This document shows, piece after piece, positions 7,342-15,540 of a stretch of 41,024 nucleotides of DNA; position 1 is the first letter of the stretch; each line of letters opens with the position of its first letter. The notes beneath the pieces are model-generated. The model was not told where the DNA came from and made no database searches. It saw only the letters and a list, made by a program, of their open reading frames with translations. The stretch is from the UHGV virus genome UHGV-0070243. One strand, given 5' to 3'. The position numbers were made by a program, and so were the translations under genes. The DNA comes from a virus.

Positions 7342-7614
7342 ATGGAGAAGATTAAGATGCAGCAGTATCACTATCCACTGGAAGACGGATTTACCGAAAG
7401 GATTCACACGCCGGGAGGCGTCAGGTCACTGGTGGAGGGATCGCACTTGATGAAATTACTCCGGGATCTCGATAAGGATGGATTTAATGTCGATGGCCCA
7501 CTTGCCGAACTGACTGCACTGATTAACTACGTCACCAGCTCGCAGATGTCTATGCAGGATCTGCAAACACATCTCGACTATTGTGCCGAACAATTACGAA
7601 AACAAACCAGATAA
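7342..7614 (+). CDS. stand-alone antirepressor C-terminal (ANT/KilA-C-like) domain protein (90 aa), probably SOS-inducible
   Basis: aligns by eye with the shared C-terminal domain of both antirepressors (PL..G...P.GV..L.E.S.LM.LL..L..DG..V.G..AELT...Y....D.QTH..Y); LexA box immediately upstream. Confidence 0.55.
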   Translation: MEKIKMQQYHYPLEDGFTERIHTPGGVRSLVEGSHLMKLLRDLDKDGFNVDGPLAELTALINYVTSSQMSMQDLQTHLDYCAEQLRKQTR

Positions 7615-7660: not shown

Positions 7661-7926
7661 ATTTACATCGCACTCCTCTTGTGCCATAGTAATCGGGCAC
7701 TGGCAAAATCCAGTGCCGGGATTGGCGTCCCGGGTTACTACAGAGGCACATATGCCGCATAAGCGGTTTTTTTATGTGTAAAGCGCACCTATTCTATGGT
7801 GGGCTGTGTGGGGGCACCGAAAGGTGCGCCGGGTCCTTTGTAGCCGGTTACGCCAACCCTGCACAGTTCACCACCAACCGATTGGCGTCGGTAGTGGTGA
7901 TTAACCTAACTACAAAGGTGATCACT

Positions 7927-8613
7927 ATGACTGCTAACGTAACCCCATCTGTTTTTCATTTTGAATCAGAAGCAACCATTCGAGCCATTGTTATTGATGG
8001 AAATCCTTGGTTTGTTGCCAAAGACGTTATTAAAGCTCTTCAACTGACAAACCCCACTATGTCAATAAAATCTCTTGATGATGATGAAAGGGCTAAATTT
8101 AACTTAGGCCGTCAAGGCGAAACCAATATTATCAACGAGTCAGGCCTCTACACACTGATCCTCCGCTGCCGCGACGCAGTGACACCAGGCACTATCCCCT
8201 ACCGCTTTCGTAAATGGGTTACAGGTGAGGTTCTTCCTCAGATCCGCCGCACCGGAAGTTACATTAAAAACTCGCTCCCGCAGGAAGAACGCATAAAGAT
8301 GGTTGCCGACCAGGTAGCCAACGCCACAGCATCAGCAGTGATGCAGGCAATGAAGATAGAGAACAAAACCTACAGTGCCCCGCTGAAGCCCGGCTACCGC
8401 AGTCTGATTCATTCGCCGTCGGGTGTTCTCGGCCTGACGGAGCACTCACTGCTGATGAATCTGCTGAACCAGTTACAGGAAGACGGGCATGACGTATCGG
8501 GCGCGGCGGCGGAGCTGACCACCATGTTCTGCTACATCGTCGGTGTGAGCAAATGCCTGCGTGATATCCAGACGCACGCGGAGTACATCAACGACAAGGC
8601 TGGGTTCTTCTGA
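7927..8613 (+). CDS. antirepressor, Bro-N domain + ANT/KilA-C C-terminal domain (228 aa)
   Basis: Bro-N signature FHFESEATIRAIVIDGNPWFVAKDVIKAL...ESGLYTLILRCRDA...RFRKWVTGEVLPQIRRTGSY; RBS AAGGTGA; ORF 7774..8613 trimmed to ATG 7927. Confidence 0.8.
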   Translation: MTANVTPSVFHFESEATIRAIVIDGNPWFVAKDVIKALQLTNPTMSIKSLDDDERAKFNLGRQGETNIINESGLYTLILRCRDAVTPGTIPYRFRKWVTGEVLPQIRRTGSYIKNSLPQEERIKMVADQVANATASAVMQAMKIENKTYSAPLKPGYRSLIHSPSGVLGLTEHSLLMNLLNQLQEDGHDVSGAAAELTTMFCYIVGVSKCLRDIQTHAEYINDKAGFF

Positions 8614-8720: not shown

Positions 8721-8930
8721 ATGGGATTTTGGTTCGCTCGTACAAAAACGAGGGATAATGCACCCAGCCCTCAGGCAAAAAATGCAGAAGTTCCGGCGTC
8801 AGCGCAGGTTAACAAGCGTGGTGGAGTATATATCTCATCACAGCAAATTTCTGAGCTTCCTGAGGTTAAGGAGATGCGTCGTCTCGCTGCTGCAATTGTT
8901 AAACAGGATCTTGCCACTGTAAGGAAATAG
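8721..8930 (+). CDS. hypothetical small soluble protein (69 aa), first gene of two-gene cargo operon
   Basis: strong SD GAGGAGGAG 4 nt before ATG; stop TAG overlaps GTG start of next gene by 1 nt; preferred over alternative-frame ORF 8698..8922. Confidence 0.5.
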   Translation: MGFWFARTKTRDNAPSPQAKNAEVPASAQVNKRGGVYISSQQISELPEVKEMRRLAAAIVKQDLATVRK

Positions 8931-9796
8931 TGTTGTTAGCTCTTCTAATTATCCCCATTCTGGTTAGTGGTTATATTATGATAACCGCTAACCAGTATCA
9001 TTATTTCCGTTTATACCGACATGAAGGCCAGCTTCTTTATATGAAAGTAGCTGCATTAGGTACATATTGCCTTGTTGCATCAGTAATAATTGCAGCCGCT
9101 ATAAAATATAAATGGCCTGATTTTCACCTAGTTCACGATATGGTGGAAACTTTTAATGTAACATCAAAACCAGAAACAGATAGAATTTACATGTGGCTGC
9201 TTCTTCTCTCAGCCACATCCATTTGCTTCTCTTTGTGTTATGTGTCTGTTGTGTGGGTGAAAGATTTTCTTCTTGGTTGTTTTTATAAACGTGATATTTA
9301 CGAGCAAAAAACAGAGGCAATGAAGGCCAGAGTACTGCGAAAAACTTACTCGCAAGGTTCTTTAGACTTACTATTGCTTGATGCTATTGAATCGGATCCT
9401 AAACGACCAATGTTGATTACTTTATCATCAAACAAAGTGTATGTTGGAATAATAAATGGTTCTGGTGAACCAACGGAAAATCAGGGTCCGCATCAGCACA
9501 TATCTTTTGTTCCTTTAATGTCAGGATACAGGAACAAAGAAAACTTATCTGTCACATTCACTAATGCTTATCCAGGAGAAATACAGGTCAAGCGGACTGC
9601 AGCAATAAGAGGAATTAGCAGAAAGAAAGTGCCAGGACTTGAGATCATGGTGTCTATTGACGAAATAAGTTATATATCATGGTTTGATTTTGAAGTATAT
9701 AAAGCAACAAATAACAAAGTAGAATCCAGGGGGCACGTTATTCGTGTTACCAAAAATGGAAGAAATATATATCAAAGAAATAGCAAAAAAGAATAG
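8930..9796 (+). CDS. hypothetical membrane protein (288 aa): three or four N-terminal TM helices plus about 160-aa soluble C-terminal domain
   Basis: GTG start with RBS AAGGAAA; visibly AT-rich codon usage unlike flanking phage genes; followed by terminator. Confidence 0.6.
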   Translation: MLLALLIIPILVSGYIMITANQYHYFRLYRHEGQLLYMKVAALGTYCLVASVIIAAAIKYKWPDFHLVHDMVETFNVTSKPETDRIYMWLLLLSATSICFSLCYVSVVWVKDFLLGCFYKRDIYEQKTEAMKARVLRKTYSQGSLDLLLLDAIESDPKRPMLITLSSNKVYVGIINGSGEPTENQGPHQHISFVPLMSGYRNKENLSVTFTNAYPGEIQVKRTAAIRGISRKKVPGLEIMVSIDEISYISWFDFEVYKATNNKVESRGHVIRVTKNGRNIYQRNSKKE

Positions 9797-10098: not shown

Positions 10099-10356
10099 TG
10101 CACATCCCTGTGCCTCCGTTCTGTCAGAAGAACCCTGCCTTGTCATTGATGTACTCTGCGTGAGTCTGGATATCACGCAGGCATTTGCTCACACCAACGA
10201 TGTAGCAGAACATGGTGGTCAGCTCCGCCGCCGCGCCCGATACGTCATGCCCGTCGTCCTGCAACTGATTCAGCAGATTCATCAGCAATGAGTTCTCCGT
10301 CAGGCCGAGAACACCAGACGGCGAGTGAATCAGGCTGCGGTAGCCGGGCTTCAGCG
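10099..10356 (-). repeat. right arm of about 258-bp inverted repeat (partner of 8380..8638)
   Basis: reverse complement of 8380..8638 matches with a handful of substitutions. Confidence 0.8.
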
Positions 10357-11068
10357 GATAACCATAACATTTTGTCTGTGTTTTAATTGCCTCACGAAGC
10401 GCATCTAACATCTTGACTGCCACTTCATCATTCTCTGATGCAGATCCAGCAGGGAGATACTCCCCTTCAAGCGGAACCCGAGCAACAAGAGACAACGCTT
10501 CGGCGAATTGATCTTCATCAATTTCTTTGTACGAACAGCCAAAATGAGATTTCAGTGACGACCACATGGTGATCATCGCCTTAGCCTGTTTTTCTTTTGG
10601 CAGAGACTGACCGCGACTCATGACGAGTTGTTTAATGGCTTCCTGCTGTTCAGTGGTTATTTTACCCGGCAACGCCTTTTTAGCTTTGCGTGGGTTAACC
10701 ACATGGCCTTTAGTCCAGTACTCGTAGAGCACATCGTCACACTCTTCCTGATACTGGATTACCTTGTCGCGGATTTCAGGACGGACTTTGTTAGGGCTGA
10801 TGGTTTGCAACCAGCCAGCAAGTTTGCGAAGTGCCAAACAAATAATCTCACGGCGCTGTTCATCCCCAGGAAGCTGCATTGTGATTTTCACAATGCAGGT
10901 TTTAAACCGCTGCTTCATTTTCGTAAACTGTGAAGCCCAATCCATACCCATTCCCTCAACGATAGGCTTCATTGGTGTGTACGGTTCGCCGTTGTGATTG
11001 ACAACATAAAGTTCTACGCCGTGGAATGGCACGTTGATAGTAGATACCGCTGTTGCTATACTCGTCAT
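10124..11068 (-). CDS. ant: antirepressor Ant-like (314 aa): Ant N-terminal domain + shared ANT/KilA-C C-terminal domain
   Basis: N-terminus VPFHGVELYVVNHNGEPYTPMKPIVEGMGMDW and KVRPEIRDKVIQYQEECDDVLYEYW recalled as P22 Ant-like; downstream of arc-like gene as in P22 immI. Confidence 0.7.
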   Translation of the reverse strand: MTSIATAVSTINVPFHGVELYVVNHNGEPYTPMKPIVEGMGMDWASQFTKMKQRFKTCIVKITMQLPGDEQRREIICLALRKLAGWLQTISPNKVRPEIRDKVIQYQEECDDVLYEYWTKGHVVNPRKAKKALPGKITTEQQEAIKQLVMSRGQSLPKEKQAKAMITMWSSLKSHFGCSYKEIDEDQFAEALSLVARVPLEGEYLPAGSASENDEVAVKMLDALREAIKTQTKCYGYPLKPGYRSLIHSPSGVLGLTENSLLMNLLNQLQDDGHDVSGAAAELTTMFCYIVGVSKCLRDIQTHAEYINDKAGFF

Positions 11069-11140
11069 GTCGTTAATTCCTATACGTAGTTTTACGATAC
11101 TGAAGCCCTGACGGTCTGGCCACCGTTGGGCTTCGCTGTT

Positions 11141-11308
11141 TTATGCCACGCTATTCTTCTCACCAGTGAGTCCATACACTTTCCTCAGCTGATAGATAAT
11201 CTCTGTATTGAACTTTCGGCATTCTTTTTCGCCATTTCTTTCAATAGCTAACTTCACATCGTCCGGAAAACGAACTCGTCGTTGACACATCTCTTTTGCT
11301 TTTTGCAT
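11141..11308 (-). CDS. arc: Arc-like ribbon-helix-helix repressor (55 aa)
   Basis: MQKAKEMCQRRVRFPDDVKLAIERNGEKECRKFNTEIIYQLRKV resembles P22 Arc (beta-strand then NSEIYQR helix); RBS AAGGAG 9 nt upstream; ORF 11141..11344 trimmed. Confidence 0.65.
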   Translation of the reverse strand: MQKAKEMCQRRVRFPDDVKLAIERNGEKECRKFNTEIIYQLRKVYGLTGEKNSVA

Positions 11309-11428
11309 TTCATATCTCCTTAGCCCCACCGTGGGGCAAAACAATTGTCACACCGTGCGTCATTGATGTCAAGCACACGGTGAGGCATACTTCAATCATT
11401 GCAAGTAACTCAATATTTGGTGAAGAAC

Positions 11429-11860
11429 ATGAGCAGAGAAGATCCACAACTAAGGATCAGACTTCCCGTTGAAGTAAAAGAAAAAATAGAAATTTCTGCA
11501 AAAGCCAATAAGCGATCAATGAACGCTGAAATAGTACAACGTCTTGACACCAGCTTTCTGAAAGATATTCATGAAGATGACGTAATTTCTGCTTATGAAG
11601 CAAAAATTATTGCAAACAATGCACGGCATGAAATATCAAATATTATTTTCAAAAGAACCTTTAATGAAATTAATAAGAAAATAACACTTGGACATACAAG
11701 TTTTTATATAAACCTTAATGACCTTGAACTGGAATCACTTGCAGATAATGATTACCAGATCATCTTTGAAAAAACATTTAATAAGCTCAATGAACTAGGT
11801 TACATCATCTGTGAAAACTCATGGGATGCAGATGGTTTTGGAATTGAAATACCTGAATAG
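11429..11860 (+). CDS. mnt: Mnt-like ribbon-helix-helix repressor with about 60-aa C-terminal extension (143 aa)
   Basis: MSREDPQLRIRLPVEVKEKIEISAKANKRSMNAEIVQRL resembles P22 Mnt N-terminus (DDPHFNFRMPMEV...ANGRSMNSELLQIV); divergent from arc; AT-rich. Confidence 0.65.
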   Translation: MSREDPQLRIRLPVEVKEKIEISAKANKRSMNAEIVQRLDTSFLKDIHEDDVISAYEAKIIANNARHEISNIIFKRTFNEINKKITLGHTSFYINLNDLELESLADNDYQIIFEKTFNKLNELGYIICENSWDADGFGIEIPE

Positions 11861-11950
11861 GAAGAACAAAAGGCGTGTACATATTACACGTCTTTAATAC
11901 AATTGAAAAACGCCACATTACTGATGTATGTTACAACAAGGAGCGATATT

Positions 11951-12514
11951 TTGAAAACCATATCTATATTAAAGGTTGCATTAGGCGTCGCTATTATTTT
12001 GACTCTCTCAATATTGTTTTATTTTTACCACAAAAAAACAGCTATTGCTCTTGATGGTCACGCGGCAAACTCATTTTTCTCAGAGTACATAGTGCCGCTA
12101 TCAGGAAGCGGTATAACAAATAAATATACTGACTATGACATCAAATATGGAATTGATGATGGGGAGACTATTGTATTACATGTAATCATTAAAAACCTAA
12201 TGACAGTAAATAAAAATACAGACTTCAACGATAAAAATACAATACATCACAACAACAGCAAAACATTAATTTCTTATAGTAGCAACATCTATACGGATAA
12301 ATACCTAAAATACATCTCAGAAGATACAATAAAAGCAACCAGCGAAAAGTTAAAAAACATATATTGTGCATCCGGCAGTTTTCACAAATTATCGCCGCAA
12401 GAGCGTTTATTCTACGAAGCAAGAAAACAACGTAAGTCAATAATATTACATTATTATGCTGATTCAGGGGAGTCACTCATATTTAATATTGGGGTTTCCC
12501 CTGAATCATGCTAA
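11951..12514 (+). CDS. hypothetical membrane-anchored protein (about 188 aa) in the position P22 sieA occupies; candidate superinfection-exclusion/abortive-infection protein
   Basis: TTG start with perfect SD AAGGAG 7 nt upstream (alternative ATG 11924 lacks an RBS); one TM helix ISILKVALGVAIILTLSILFYFY; very AT-rich; sits between mnt and the core-protein operon. Confidence 0.5.
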   Translation: MKTISILKVALGVAIILTLSILFYFYHKKTAIALDGHAANSFFSEYIVPLSGSGITNKYTDYDIKYGIDDGETIVLHVIIKNLMTVNKNTDFNDKNTIHHNNSKTLISYSSNIYTDKYLKYISEDTIKATSEKLKNIYCASGSFHKLSPQERLFYEARKQRKSIILHYYADSGESLIFNIGVSPESC

Positions 12515-12525
12515 AGGCGTTTAAC

Positions 12526-15500
12526 TCACCGCATCACCGGATCCACCTGGTTTATTAGTGGCGCAATCCAGAACAGGTTATTGCCTGGTATCAGGGTTCG
12601 GACATTATGCACAATACGATCACCGGCATCACCATTCAACACTCCTGCGGTCACATCAATGATGCTATCCGCAAGACCAAATGACGGTCCGAATAGAGAT
12701 CCTACGAATCCACGACTGGCATACCTAGACTGTGTGCCAGTGCCAAATAAAGCCCCCAGCCCAACAGCACCACCAGTAGCCTTTTCAGCCATGTTGTTAT
12801 ATTCCATCAATGGCCCAAGAATACCGGATCTATCTATACCCTCAAGCACCAGCTTCTCTGGTGACCAGTCAACATTTTTCCCTTTCGATGCTTCTTTAAG
12901 CGCATAGACCAGTGAGCCAAGAGCAATCTGAAATGCAGTGCCATAATAAAATTGCGCAGTTCCTTCCTGTAGCCCACCAAGTAGCGCACGGTTGTATGAA
13001 GCCGTTGTGAATGATTTAAACTGAAATATCGTTCGCCCCATTGGAGTACTCGCCCATAAAGGTGTGTCACCAATACCGGGGGTGATGATAGTGTTATTAA
13101 CGTCTTTCAGAACCGCTGACTGGAATACTCCGGCAACGTACTGATCGTCCCATTTATCAAAGTTACCAATGTGCCATCCATCAATTACCTCACCATGTTT
13201 CTCGAACTCACTGCGAATACGCGCAGCCATATTGTCGTTGATACCGAGTTTTGCCATGCGACGTGCAGAAAACGCACCAGACAAAATACCGTCTGACGTG
13301 AGCATTCCGTTCATGGATTTGTTTATGTCATTAAATCGATCCATGAGTGTCAGCTTGCCGAAGGCATCAGTAATTCGCTCCATTCCTGCTTCGACTGCTG
13401 TTGTCCTGGAAGAACTGTCAACAAGATCACCAATTGCACGAGAACGTGAATGTAGTACAGTTTCCAATCCAATCCCCATCTTCAACATCTCTTCTTTGCT
13501 GGCCTTAAATGCCGGTGATTGGGATATCTGAGAAGCATAGCCTTTCATGGTGTTACGGAAACCATTAACCATAACCCCTCTGGCCAGATCTGGAATAGCT
13601 GATACTGTCATTCCACCGAGTTTGGTCGTGAAGTTCACATCCCGCAGAAAAGCGCCAGCACGAACAAAAAACGAAGACGGGTCATCAGGCATACCATATG
13701 TACCAACAAGACGATCGCGTAATGCTGTTATGTCTCTGAGATCATTTGCTCTTGATTTTGAAAGTCTGGACTGTTCTTTCCGTAATTCCTTTTCGTACTT
13801 TCGCATTAATGAATCGAGTTTACCCTGAGGAACAACTTCACCATTGCTCTCATAACGTGCTTTCAGATTTGCCACACTTTCGTCATATTTCGCCTTTATT
13901 TTTTCAGGCACTTCCCGTAACAGACTGTCATATTCGTCTTCAATTAATTGCAGACGCTCAGCCATAGTTCGTTTGCCAAATGTTCTCGTCAACTCAATTT
14001 CTGCTGCCGCTTCACGGATATGACGTTGCAGCACGTAATTCACATCACTTTCGAGATAATCCCTGATAAGACTATCAGGCACATTTAATGTTCTTTCTTT
14101 CGTACTACCTGCGGCTTTTACAGAAAATACGCTGACAAAATCCTGTGGAACCTTAGCACCAGTAATTTTATTAATTACGATATCCGCTGCAATTTCAGCA
14201 TCCTCAGGATCCAGTGTTTTATTGCCTCTCGACCACCAGTCAACCAAAATACGTCGAAATTTATCGCGTTCACTGATTATTTTTCCAACTTTATATATAC
14301 GTGGGAAATAGCTTGCCTGACCTAATGCTTTCAGTTCTTCATCTGGCGGCAATAAACCAAGCTTTTGCATTTCAACTTTCACCCGATTTAATACAGTTCG
14401 CATCGCCTGCGCCGTTTCCTGAACAACAGGATTAGCATGAACATCACCGCTTCGCATCGCATTCCCAACCTGCTGACGAAATGAATCAAAACTCATGTCA
14501 CCACCATCAGCTTTATACTTTGCGTATGCCTGTTTATTTCCGACAACAACTGCAGCTTCTTCACGCTGCCATCCACGTGTACGGGTTTCTACAGCTATCG
14601 GTGTTTCAATCCCCCTTTCATTTCCTTTAAGGGTGAAATTATTTTCGGCTAACTCCAGCGTTGTTTTTCGCACTGTCTTTGACGGAGACTCCATTAACCT
14701 TGTCAAAGGAGTAAGATAGCTCCCTGCTTTCCATGCAGCCTTTCCAACCACCCCACCAGAAACAGGGGTTAAATCATCCAGAGTCGCTGTATCAATTTTC
14801 ATAGCACCAACACTACCACCATCGGAAAGCGAAGCGGCAGCCCTGTCAGTCGCTGATGTAATGCTCATATTATCAAGAGCATCAGCAACCTCACGTGTGG
14901 CTGCAGCCCGGACGGATGGCGAAAGCGCAACACCAGCACTGGCAAACACGCCGCTCATCATCGCACCCGCTGCAACGTGAGCGGCACTTTCACCCCATGA
15001 GCGTGTTATTTGCTGATTATTCAGTACAACCTCGCTTAATGCAGTACCGGCAGCACCAATCGCAATCTGTGAGCCAATACGCGCCAGTGCCCCTCCTTGA
15101 GCACCGGGGATAAACATTGACGCAACAGTAACCGGATCCATTCCCGCAGCAATACTGGCAAGGGTTCCAACTACGCCAGCATCAGACAATAAACGTCTGT
15201 CTTCATTTTCATCATCTATCTGCTGCTTAATCCACGCCGTTTCCTCTGGCGATCGGGAATCTGCAAATTTCGCCCCCCAGTATTCATAACCGTGCAACTC
15301 ATTTTTATCAGCATATGGGTTATAACCTTCGACCGGTTCAAACTGTCTGGCTGGGCGGAAAAAACCAGCCAGAATATTGTTCTGTCGCATTGCAGCCCCC
15401 CATACGGAAGGCTCAGGTGGCAATGGCTCAGGATTAGCCCCTTCCGGAAGGGCAACATCAAACCCAGTTTGTTCCGGCAAAACATTACCTGACGGGATCA

Positions 15501-15540
15501 GTCCGTTATTAAGATCTTCAGCTTGTGCATAAACTGGCAT
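12526..15540 (-). CDS. internal virion/ejection protein (1004 aa), T7 gp16-like by position and size
   Basis: last large gene of core operon before the immI block; Gly/Ala-rich stretches; start overlaps upstream stop. Confidence 0.6.
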   Translation of the reverse strand: MPVYAQAEDLNNGLIPSGNVLPEQTGFDVALPEGANPEPLPPEPSVWGAAMRQNNILAGFFRPARQFEPVEGYNPYADKNELHGYEYWGAKFADSRSPEETAWIKQQIDDENEDRRLLSDAGVVGTLASIAAGMDPVTVASMFIPGAQGGALARIGSQIAIGAAGTALSEVVLNNQQITRSWGESAAHVAAGAMMSGVFASAGVALSPSVRAAATREVADALDNMSITSATDRAAASLSDGGSVGAMKIDTATLDDLTPVSGGVVGKAAWKAGSYLTPLTRLMESPSKTVRKTTLELAENNFTLKGNERGIETPIAVETRTRGWQREEAAVVVGNKQAYAKYKADGGDMSFDSFRQQVGNAMRSGDVHANPVVQETAQAMRTVLNRVKVEMQKLGLLPPDEELKALGQASYFPRIYKVGKIISERDKFRRILVDWWSRGNKTLDPEDAEIAADIVINKITGAKVPQDFVSVFSVKAAGSTKERTLNVPDSLIRDYLESDVNYVLQRHIREAAAEIELTRTFGKRTMAERLQLIEDEYDSLLREVPEKIKAKYDESVANLKARYESNGEVVPQGKLDSLMRKYEKELRKEQSRLSKSRANDLRDITALRDRLVGTYGMPDDPSSFFVRAGAFLRDVNFTTKLGGMTVSAIPDLARGVMVNGFRNTMKGYASQISQSPAFKASKEEMLKMGIGLETVLHSRSRAIGDLVDSSSRTTAVEAGMERITDAFGKLTLMDRFNDINKSMNGMLTSDGILSGAFSARRMAKLGINDNMAARIRSEFEKHGEVIDGWHIGNFDKWDDQYVAGVFQSAVLKDVNNTIITPGIGDTPLWASTPMGRTIFQFKSFTTASYNRALLGGLQEGTAQFYYGTAFQIALGSLVYALKEASKGKNVDWSPEKLVLEGIDRSGILGPLMEYNNMAEKATGGAVGLGALFGTGTQSRYASRGFVGSLFGPSFGLADSIIDVTAGVLNGDAGDRIVHNVRTLIPGNNLFWIAPLINQVDPVMR

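Follow-up and report, generated by a model that had tools for sequence, protein, structure and literature searches.

The locus at positions 11309-12514 of UHGV-0070243, a viral DNA of 41,024 nucleotides (the whole stretch analyzed, referred to here as the window), raises the question of whether its divergent arc-like and mnt-like genes, and the AT-rich gene for a membrane protein that lies directly downstream of mnt-like, form an immunity block of the kind found at immI of phage P22, with a superinfection exclusion factor in the place of SieA. An earlier note, made from the sequence alone, had proposed that they do. Region 10124-11860 is a full homologue of P22 immI, consisting of ant, sar, an arc-like gene, and an mnt-like gene, and it belongs to a known kind, with regulation of variant design that combines three Mnt-type operators, back-to-back promoters, ribbon-helix-helix (RHH) heads with Q-R-R reading residues, and a two-domain Mnt. 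As a whole, the locus is best explained, at a probability of roughly 0.6, by two independent modules, this immI switch and an AT-rich moron, which adjoin in the variable “ant moron” zone that extends from the injection-protein genes to the tailspike gene. The product of the moron is not of the SieA family, and a role in exclusion is assigned to it only tentatively.

The order and orientations of the genes are those of P22, in which gene 16 is followed by sieA, orf59a, mnt, the operators, arc, sar, ant, and gene 9, and in both phages the block is located between injection-protein genes and the tailspike gene. On the minus strand, ant (10124-11068) encodes an antirepressor of 314 aa that matches Pfam P22_AR_N (3.7e-44) and, over 217 aa, shares 40% identity with P22 Ant (E 1e-41). 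A full sar unit of promoter, RNA, and terminator (11034-11142), which the earlier note had not seen, occupies the interval between arc and ant and makes the immI-like block more complete than had been claimed. Its Psar-like promoter on the plus strand (11034-11062; TTGATA-17-TATACT with an extended TG, 10/12 matches in the promoter scan) stops 7 nt short of the Rfam match for a sar-like antisense RNA (11070-11137, plus strand), which lies over the ant ribosome-binding region. The RNA matches RF00262 over the full length of the model with 45.2 bits (gathering score, 43; E 2e-7), and at its 3′ end the terminator scan found a hairpin (11113-11132) followed by a T-run.

Both small genes that flank the divergent region are related to their P22 counterparts. 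The mnt-like gene (11429-11860, plus strand, ATG at 11429) has a GC content of 0.322 compared with 0.475 for the window and encodes a repressor of 143 aa that matches Pfam Arc (1.1e-14) and, over its full length, PHROG 1388, a family with no assigned function; in a BLASTP alignment that takes in the C-terminal helix of P22 Mnt, the two proteins are 32% identical over 88 aa (E 3e-14). The arc-like gene (11141-11308, minus strand, ATG complementary to 11306-11308) is the first gene of the Pant operon and encodes 55 aa. It matches the Arc-like family PHROG 228 (3.4e-5), is 33% identical to P22 Arc over 40 aa (BLASTP, E 4e-5), aligns with the Mnt-like RHH in hhalign (probability 84%, E 7e-6), and matches Arc profiles from the PDB weakly (E 0.07-0.14). 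The gene is conserved in 18 loci. The RHH fold that the earlier note expected of both proteins is thus well supported for the Mnt-like repressor by its Pfam match and by the structural comparisons described below, while for the arc-like protein, to judge from the PHROG, BLASTP, and hhalign matches, it is probable.

The genes are separated by 120 bp (11309-11428), within which the palindrome GCCCCACCGTGGGGC (11323-11337), with 7-bp arms and a central C, and two further CACCGTG/CACGGTG cores were found where the earlier note had placed such elements. These heptamers occur six times in the whole window, close to the 4.7 expected, and three of the six fall within 56 bp (11327-11333, 11351-11357, and 11376-11382) at spacings of 24 and 25 bp. 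The first belongs to O1 (11323-11337), a perfect Mnt-type operator of sequence GCCCCAC-C-GTGGGGC that extends from ~+1 to +15 of Pant, covering the predicted start, and stands directly upstream of the Shine-Dalgarno (SD) sequence of arc. P22 Omnt is AGGTCCACGGTGGACCT and O1 is AGCCCCACCGTGGGGCA; the CCACGGTGG-core palindrome at the start of Pant in the window occupies the equivalent place with respect to the Pant -10 element and the arc SD sequence. Because P22 Omnt has the same CCAC-S-GTGG core in the same position, O1-O3 are Mnt-type operators, and an initial reading of them as “new operator chemistry” was rejected after comparison with the P22 sequence. As the earlier note stated, the operators do differ from the TTACC-N5-GGTAA sites present elsewhere in the window, none of which lies in the immI block. 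An RNA hairpin at O1 was also considered and rejected, as the inferred Pant start lies inside O1 and a loop of 1 nt does not allow the 7-bp stem to form.

Pant (11344-11372, minus strand) consists of a -35 hexamer TTGACA (11372-11367), a 17-bp spacer, and a -10 hexamer GACAAT (11349-11344) with an extended TG, scoring 10/12 in the promoter scan; the sequence TTGnnGTCAA at this promoter is kept in nearly all related loci. O2 (11347-11361; GTCACAC-C-GTGCGTC) is located in the Pant spacer and overlaps the -10 element. Facing in the opposite direction is an inferred Pmnt (11363-11391, plus strand), read from the sequence and by homology to relatives that carry TTGAAG-17-CATAAT at this position. 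It consists of TTGATG (11363-11368), a 17-bp spacer, and CATACT (11386-11391), and it was not listed by the promoter scan because only 8/12 positions match. The -35 hexamers of Pmnt and Pant overlap back to back. O3 (11372-11386; AGCACAC-G-GTGAGGC), a degenerate Mnt-type operator in the Pmnt spacer, is a candidate autoregulatory site; among relatives the consensus here is CCCCAC-S-GTGGGG followed by CATAAT. This arrangement departs from that of P22, in which a single Omnt is accompanied by one Arc-type operator of 21 bp with TAGA half-sites between the -35 and -10 elements of Pant. In the window, three Mnt-type operators are set 24-25 bp apart, and the place of the Arc operator is taken by O2. 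The proteins also differ in their reading residues, which are Q-R-R in the window, H-N-R in P22 Mnt, and Q-N-R in P22 Arc.

These features bear on which repressor uses which operator. In the Mnt-like family, the β-strand residues Q7, R9, and R11 are invariant, their aligned counterparts in the arc-like protein are Q9, R/K11, and R13, and this correspondence of DNA-facing residues suggests that the two proteins read the same core. O2 is proposed as the preferred arc-like site, a candidate equivalent of Oarc, because its flank type tracks the arc-like gene (a GTCACAC-type middle site is present in 18/18 loci with this gene and in 0/25 without it) and because it stands where P22 has Oarc. Its sequence is nearly invariant across Enterobacterales. 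The 18 loci represent one clade, so the proposal is a lead and not a proof. A rather unlikely alternative is that the Mnt-like repressor alone binds O1-O3 and the arc-like protein acts elsewhere or has lost DNA binding. It would account for the retention of all three operators in loci that lack the arc-like gene, and it agrees with the weak match of the arc-like protein to Arc profiles, but it fits poorly with conserved Q/R(K)/R residues in both proteins and with a middle-site type found only together with the arc-like gene.

The comparative evidence for the operator array is extensive. Over 26 related loci, the 130 bp that precede the mnt-like gene had a motif density of 21.6/kb compared with 0.10/kb elsewhere, an enrichment of ~200-fold. 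All 25 full-length relatives fetched from genomes (16 from Enterobacterales and 9 from Pseudomonas or Stutzerimonas) have three palindromes spaced 24-29 bp apart, the second and third of which flank TTGnnGTCAA (TTGCTGTAAA in one of them). Two or three palindromes recur in 43 loci across Proteobacteria, spanning Enterobacterales, Pseudomonas, Acinetobacter, and Rhizobium, and nearly all have TTGnnGTCAA between the last two. The same layout precedes relatives whose similarity is confined to the RHH head and whose C-termini are of other kinds (52-201 aa; Giesbergeria, Acinetobacter, Stenotrophomonas, Rhizobium, Serratia, and Xenorhabdus). Because relatives of 87-201 aa with such C-termini also have the triple operator, a link between it and the C-terminal extension was rejected. 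Since the layout persists with differing C-termini, the RHH head and operator array form an old cassette in which the C-terminal domain is exchangeable. The center base of the operators switches freely between C and G among species, and C11330G, at the center of O1, is the sole operator polymorphism among 17 near-identical relatives in IMG/VR; a two-fold-symmetric protein and site would be expected to tolerate exactly such a change. The commonest intergenic polymorphism is C11342T, two bases downstream of the Pant -10 element, found in 11 of 17 loci from close relatives, that of TL-2011b included.

The C-terminal extension of ~60 aa that the earlier note attributed to the Mnt-like protein is real: the protein has 143 residues, 60 more than P22 Mnt, which consists of ~83 aa forming an RHH and a single C-terminal tetramerization helix. 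The AlphaFold2 (AF2) model, with a predicted local distance difference test (pLDDT) score of 79, contains an RHH head (1-45), a long helix (55-86) that aligns with the C-terminal helix of P22 Mnt, and an additional α/β domain of β-α-α-β-β topology (87-143) that is acidic (pI 4.05). Foldseek matched the head to Arc (1par) and to AmrZ of Pseudomonas aeruginosa (3qoq) with probabilities of 0.99-1.0. AmrZ is the best structural match of the head (40% identity over 40 columns, probability 1.0), and it differs as a chromosomal global regulator with another C-terminal domain and other operators. A C-terminal oligomerization region is present in AmrZ as well. Foldseek matches to the tail were limited to winged-helix-like proteins (Stn1, ORC, ScpA, and Cdt1), all with E >0.2, and are taken as a resemblance of topology, with no membership claimed. 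The ratio of nonsynonymous to synonymous polymorphism (pN/pS) of mnt is 0.02, indicative of strong purifying selection. With 262 clusters, 58-69% identity over the full length in many enterobacterial genera, and members in Pseudomonas at 33-39% identity, the extended Mnt is a widespread two-domain family and is not peculiar to the phage in the window. Full-length homologues also occur in Pf-like filamentous (inovirus) prophages of Pseudomonas and Stutzerimonas (L020-L028; e.g., L025, 1337-1588 and 3672-3965) that match Inovirus Coat B (1e-6), where the gene has three GGACCAC-S-GTGGTCC operators, is divergent from an HTH_17 excisionase-like gene, and is followed by AT-rich cargo; there it may serve as the main prophage repressor.

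The window is a TL-2011b-like prophage of Escherichia coli. Its segment 11000-12600 (1.6 kb) is 99.3% identical to Escherichia phage TL-2011b and 100% identical to a prophage in E. coli AR_0085, and most of it is present in 36/5,426 complete E. coli genomes. The phage is not P22-like, differing from P22 in its T7-type internal virion proteins. An initial label of epsilon15-like was dropped for TL-2011b: its taxonomy entry reads unclassified Caudoviricetes, and no named genus was assigned because the identity of its large internal virion protein to the counterpart in every other sequenced phage is <40%. The published TL-2011b genome contains an extra G at the position corresponding to window 11454-11455, in mnt codon 9 (CTAAGGGATC vs CTAAGGATC), and its mnt is annotated as a truncated protein of 113 aa because this base shifts the frame within the DNA-binding strand. 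The reading frame at codon 9 is intact in the window and in 16/17 IMG/VR relatives. The frameshift is either a sequencing error or the mark of a true mnt-defective phage, and it matters to any user of that reference record.

The second module is a gene of 187 codons on the plus strand (11951-12514) with a TTG start after AAGGAG. Its GC content of 0.326, against 0.475 for the window, and the one hydrophobic segment of its product, at residues ~4-27 (Kyte-Doolittle 19-residue maximum, 2.47; AF2 helix 4-27), bear out the earlier description of an AT-rich gene for a single-pass membrane protein in the sieA position. The AF2 model (pLDDT 78; predicted template modeling score, pTM, 0.69) places a soluble α/β domain of ~155 aa behind this anchor. 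The family is PHROG 8033, which carries no function, and comparison gave no match in Pfam or NCBIfam and no meaningful one in PADLOC, a ThsB match there (E 0.005, 15 bits) being judged chance; query P0133 had no match in viral contigs. A word-based search returned near-identical copies only, indicative of a very narrow distribution, while an exhaustive HMMER search recovered 17 cluster representatives, with distant relatives at 27-30% identity. Several motifs are kept in their alignment, and two cysteines (138 and 187, at the end of α2 and at the C-terminus) are conserved in every member that spans those positions. Some members have a cleavable signal peptide instead of the anchor, and a canonical lipobox is absent from all of them. 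Together, the signal peptides, invariant cysteines, and motifs point to an extracytoplasmic, disulfide-bonded domain, which in the window protein is probably periplasmic. The best fold matches, of moderate quality, are PA3611 and the T2SS (type II secretion system) pilotin AspS, with which the model shares the order α1-β1-β2-β3-α2-α3-β4-β5-α4; Foldseek comparison with viral structures gave nothing at E <0.1. In the AspS/PA3611 fold family, α2 is joined to the C-terminal element by a conserved disulfide. A match of the family of the window protein to a PDB profile of iota-carbonic anhydrase (summed E 7e-7) is composed of three repeats each non-significant (i-E 0.5-0.85) and is in conflict with the AF2 secondary structure.

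The gene lies between mnt and the gene for the last internal virion (ejectosome) protein (12526-15540, minus strand; 1004 aa; 1.4e-209 to PHROG 342, “internal virion protein with endolysin domain”). It is oriented like mnt, convergent with the virion gene at a distance of 11 bp, on the strand opposite to the late genes. P22 sieA has the same slot and orientation, next to the last injection-protein gene and before the tailspike gene, and both are genes for membrane proteins carried by morons in an AT-poor context. In 9/9 lineages examined, with or without immI, the membrane-family gene runs toward the gene for the 1004-aa homologue (45-75% identical) and adjoins or overlaps its 3′ end, and this synteny holds where mnt, arc, and ant are absent. 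The membrane protein is only 27-30% identical where its virion neighbor is 51-74% identical, its pN/pS is 0.54 compared with 0.17 for the neighboring gene, and its GC content is 10-13 points below that of neighboring genes in every lineage. In E. coli MS8345 (L052, 4448-4975), a non-homologous protein of 175 aa with an N-terminal transmembrane segment occupies the slot beside an internal-virion-protein gene that is 97% identical; this protein has no Pfam or PADLOC match.

Several small phage envelope proteins, often with a single N-terminal anchor, block the entry of superinfecting DNA, among them T4 Sp (spackle), T4 Imm, lactococcal Sie2009, and HK97 gp15. Their likeness to the window protein would be an analogy of mechanism only, and no homology is expected. 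P22 SieA resides in the inner membrane, and its proposed action is to disturb the DNA-delivery conduit formed by gp20/gp16; sieA genes, found between homologues of P22 genes 16 and 9, fall into three divergent types (A-C) that act on the ejection-protein conduit (PMC10883804). The behavior of the slot in the window lineage (linkage to the injection gene, divergence, and replacement in MS8345) parallels that of sieA, and superinfection exclusion is for this reason the best-supported function of the membrane protein, although the assignment is a tentative one. Position, conserved linkage to the injection genes, and the predicted periplasmic fold make such a role plausible. A more specific form of the idea, which is possible though doubtful, is that the 187-aa protein is the founder of a new class of exclusion factor, in which an AspS/PA3611-like domain in the periplasm, disulfide-bonded and anchored in the inner membrane, would capture a segment of ejected T7-type internal virion proteins, prevent assembly of the trans-envelope DNA conduit, and co-evolve with the abutting injection gene.

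A role for the membrane protein in lysogenic conversion or host fitness, acting on a host envelope machine as, for example, a secretin chaperone or blocker, is an unlikely alternative that draws on the fold matches. The AspS pilotin binds the S-domain of GspD (PMC3542185), and conversion genes (gtrABC-like and acyltransferase) are present in neighboring slots of related prophages. However, the family has no lipobox or outer-membrane targeting signal, and most members have the domain anchored in the inner membrane, unlike AspS and PA3611, which are lipoproteins or free in the periplasm; the family further differs in being phage-borne, and its TL-2011b subgroup in a 29-residue insertion, and neither Pfam nor PDB comparison yielded a sequence match to AspS (4ftf) or PA3611 (3npd). 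Strict adjacency to the injection-protein gene would also be left unexplained. Another alternative is a lytic-cycle factor in place of a prophage-expressed exclusion factor, either a helper in the assembly or infection functions of the internal virion proteins or a periplasmic inhibitor of the virion SLT transglycosylase, in agreement with which synteny with the injection module is kept down to 45-50% identity of the internal virion protein and the gene for the SLT-domain protein is next in the operon. Such a factor is quite improbable for a gene on the strand opposite to the late operon, with its depressed GC content in every lineage, its absence from all other sequenced phages with homologous internal virion proteins, and its replacement by an unrelated gene in MS8345 despite a nearly unchanged internal virion protein.

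A number of observations weigh against the two-module reading with an exclusion-type moron. For the switch, the arc-like protein is below threshold for Pfam Arc (12.8 vs 20.4 bits, E 0.11); TAGA is absent from 11309-11428, which thus holds no Arc-type operator; the -35 hexamers are back to back, while the promoters of P22 overlap fully; and both O3 and the Pmnt -10 element are weaker than the family consensus, such that autoregulation may be weak. For the moron, BLASTP against SieA gave E 0.15, confined to transmembrane segments and indicating no relation; its invariable place beside the internal-virion-protein gene could be a matter of common descent and not of function; and its pN/pS and the frameshifted database variants also fit relaxed constraint. 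The SieA motif FxRYPxEAxxFNK is likewise absent, and SieA has several transmembrane helices and a cytoplasmic motif, in contrast to the one N-terminal anchor and large periplasmic domain predicted here. Of the SieA features compared, the membrane protein has only the genomic position; it is not of that family, and it may nevertheless work like SieA. That the open reading frame is a decaying or functionless remnant, as its elevated pN/pS, very narrow distribution, and frameshifted or truncated protein-database variants (P0002-P0004) might suggest, is very improbable given an intact frame in 18/18 IMG/VR contigs, motifs and both cysteines kept in distant relatives at 27-30% identity, and a confident AF2 model.

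Homology, anatomy, conservation, and synteny together allow a circuit to be drawn, in which we infer the binding events, the expression in the lysogen, and the exclusion phenotype. Pant would drive arc and ant, and Pmnt would drive mnt divergently. The Mnt-like repressor may occupy O1-O3 in the lysogen, keeping the antirepressor off and limiting its own synthesis; after infection or induction, the arc-like protein made from Pant would feed back on the same region, with O2 as its likeliest site, and sar RNA would pair with the ant ribosome-binding region. Helix 55-86 of the Mnt-like protein is probably the counterpart of the P22 Mnt tetramerization helix, and the acidic domain 87-143 probably adds protein-protein contacts, either for cooperativity between operator-bound oligomers or with a partner, contact with DNA being unlikely. 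The moron may be transcribed from its own promoter, by read-through from Pmnt, or both, and its product would on this account be made in the lysogen as an inner-membrane-anchored protein with a disulfide-bonded periplasmic domain. Its likeliest job would be to disturb, in the periplasm, the envelope-spanning conduit that related superinfecting phages build from their ejected internal virion proteins, an outcome the same as that of SieA, reached through an unrelated protein.

Within this reading, the textbook Mnt/Arc switch of P22 is one derived version of a much wider cassette, defined by an MSREDPQ-x-R-x-R RHH head, two or three CCAC-S-GTGG operators, and back-to-back promoters, and found again, joined to various C-terminal domains, in podovirus, siphovirus-like, and filamentous prophages ranging from Enterobacterales to Pseudomonas, Acinetobacter, and Rhizobium. 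These loci offer a comparative data set on the tuning of an antirepressor switch by operator number and oligomerization domains. The immI part is ordinary in kind, and the membrane protein is a new and cheaply testable candidate for a periplasmic block of DNA entry directed against phages with T7-type ejectosomes. Very few such blocks have been characterized, those being P22 SieA in 2024 and the HXS system in 2026 (PMC10883804, PMC13128918).

The interval between mnt and the membrane-protein gene contains a hairpin, CGTGTA-CATAT-TACACG (11874-11890), which the terminator scan lists on the minus strand and which is followed on the plus strand by TCTTTAAT; it is a weak and possibly bidirectional terminator. 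Two promoter-like sites on the plus strand upstream of the gene (11876-11932), TGTACA-16-TACAAT and TTGAAA-18-TATGTT, each scored 9/12 in the scan and represent consensus matches only. Beyond the other end of the gene, a 45-bp segment in the 3′ end of the internal-virion-protein gene (12532-12576) includes a terminator-like hairpin (12536-12551) and is 100% identical in several E. coli prophages with differing flanks, which carry it without annotation (H21-H26). A recombination joint and a shared terminator are two possible explanations.

Other genes were observed at the equivalent position in related prophages. In Citrobacter (L006, 4664-7400), N-terminal sequences identify the genes that directly follow the mnt-like gene as an O-antigen glucosylation cassette of gtrA/gtrB/gtrC-like type, and an AT-rich acyltransferase gene was recognized in the same manner in Dryocola (L007, 4510-5607). 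It seems that the position downstream of mnt-like generally receives prophage-expressed surface or defense genes. The TTACC-N5-GGTAA sites number 14 in the window compared with 0.83 expected (7265, 7646, 8680, 27564, 28181, 31114, 31132, 34280, 34342, 36281, 36618, 36666, 37378, and 37440) and resemble a set of operators for a different repressor, one that controls morons as well. Three of them stand just upstream of plus-strand open reading frames in the vicinity of the tailspike gene (7342-7614, 7774-8613, and 8930-9796, the last being AT-rich), and in E. coli MS8345 one such site (~4415) also lies ahead of the alternative slot gene.

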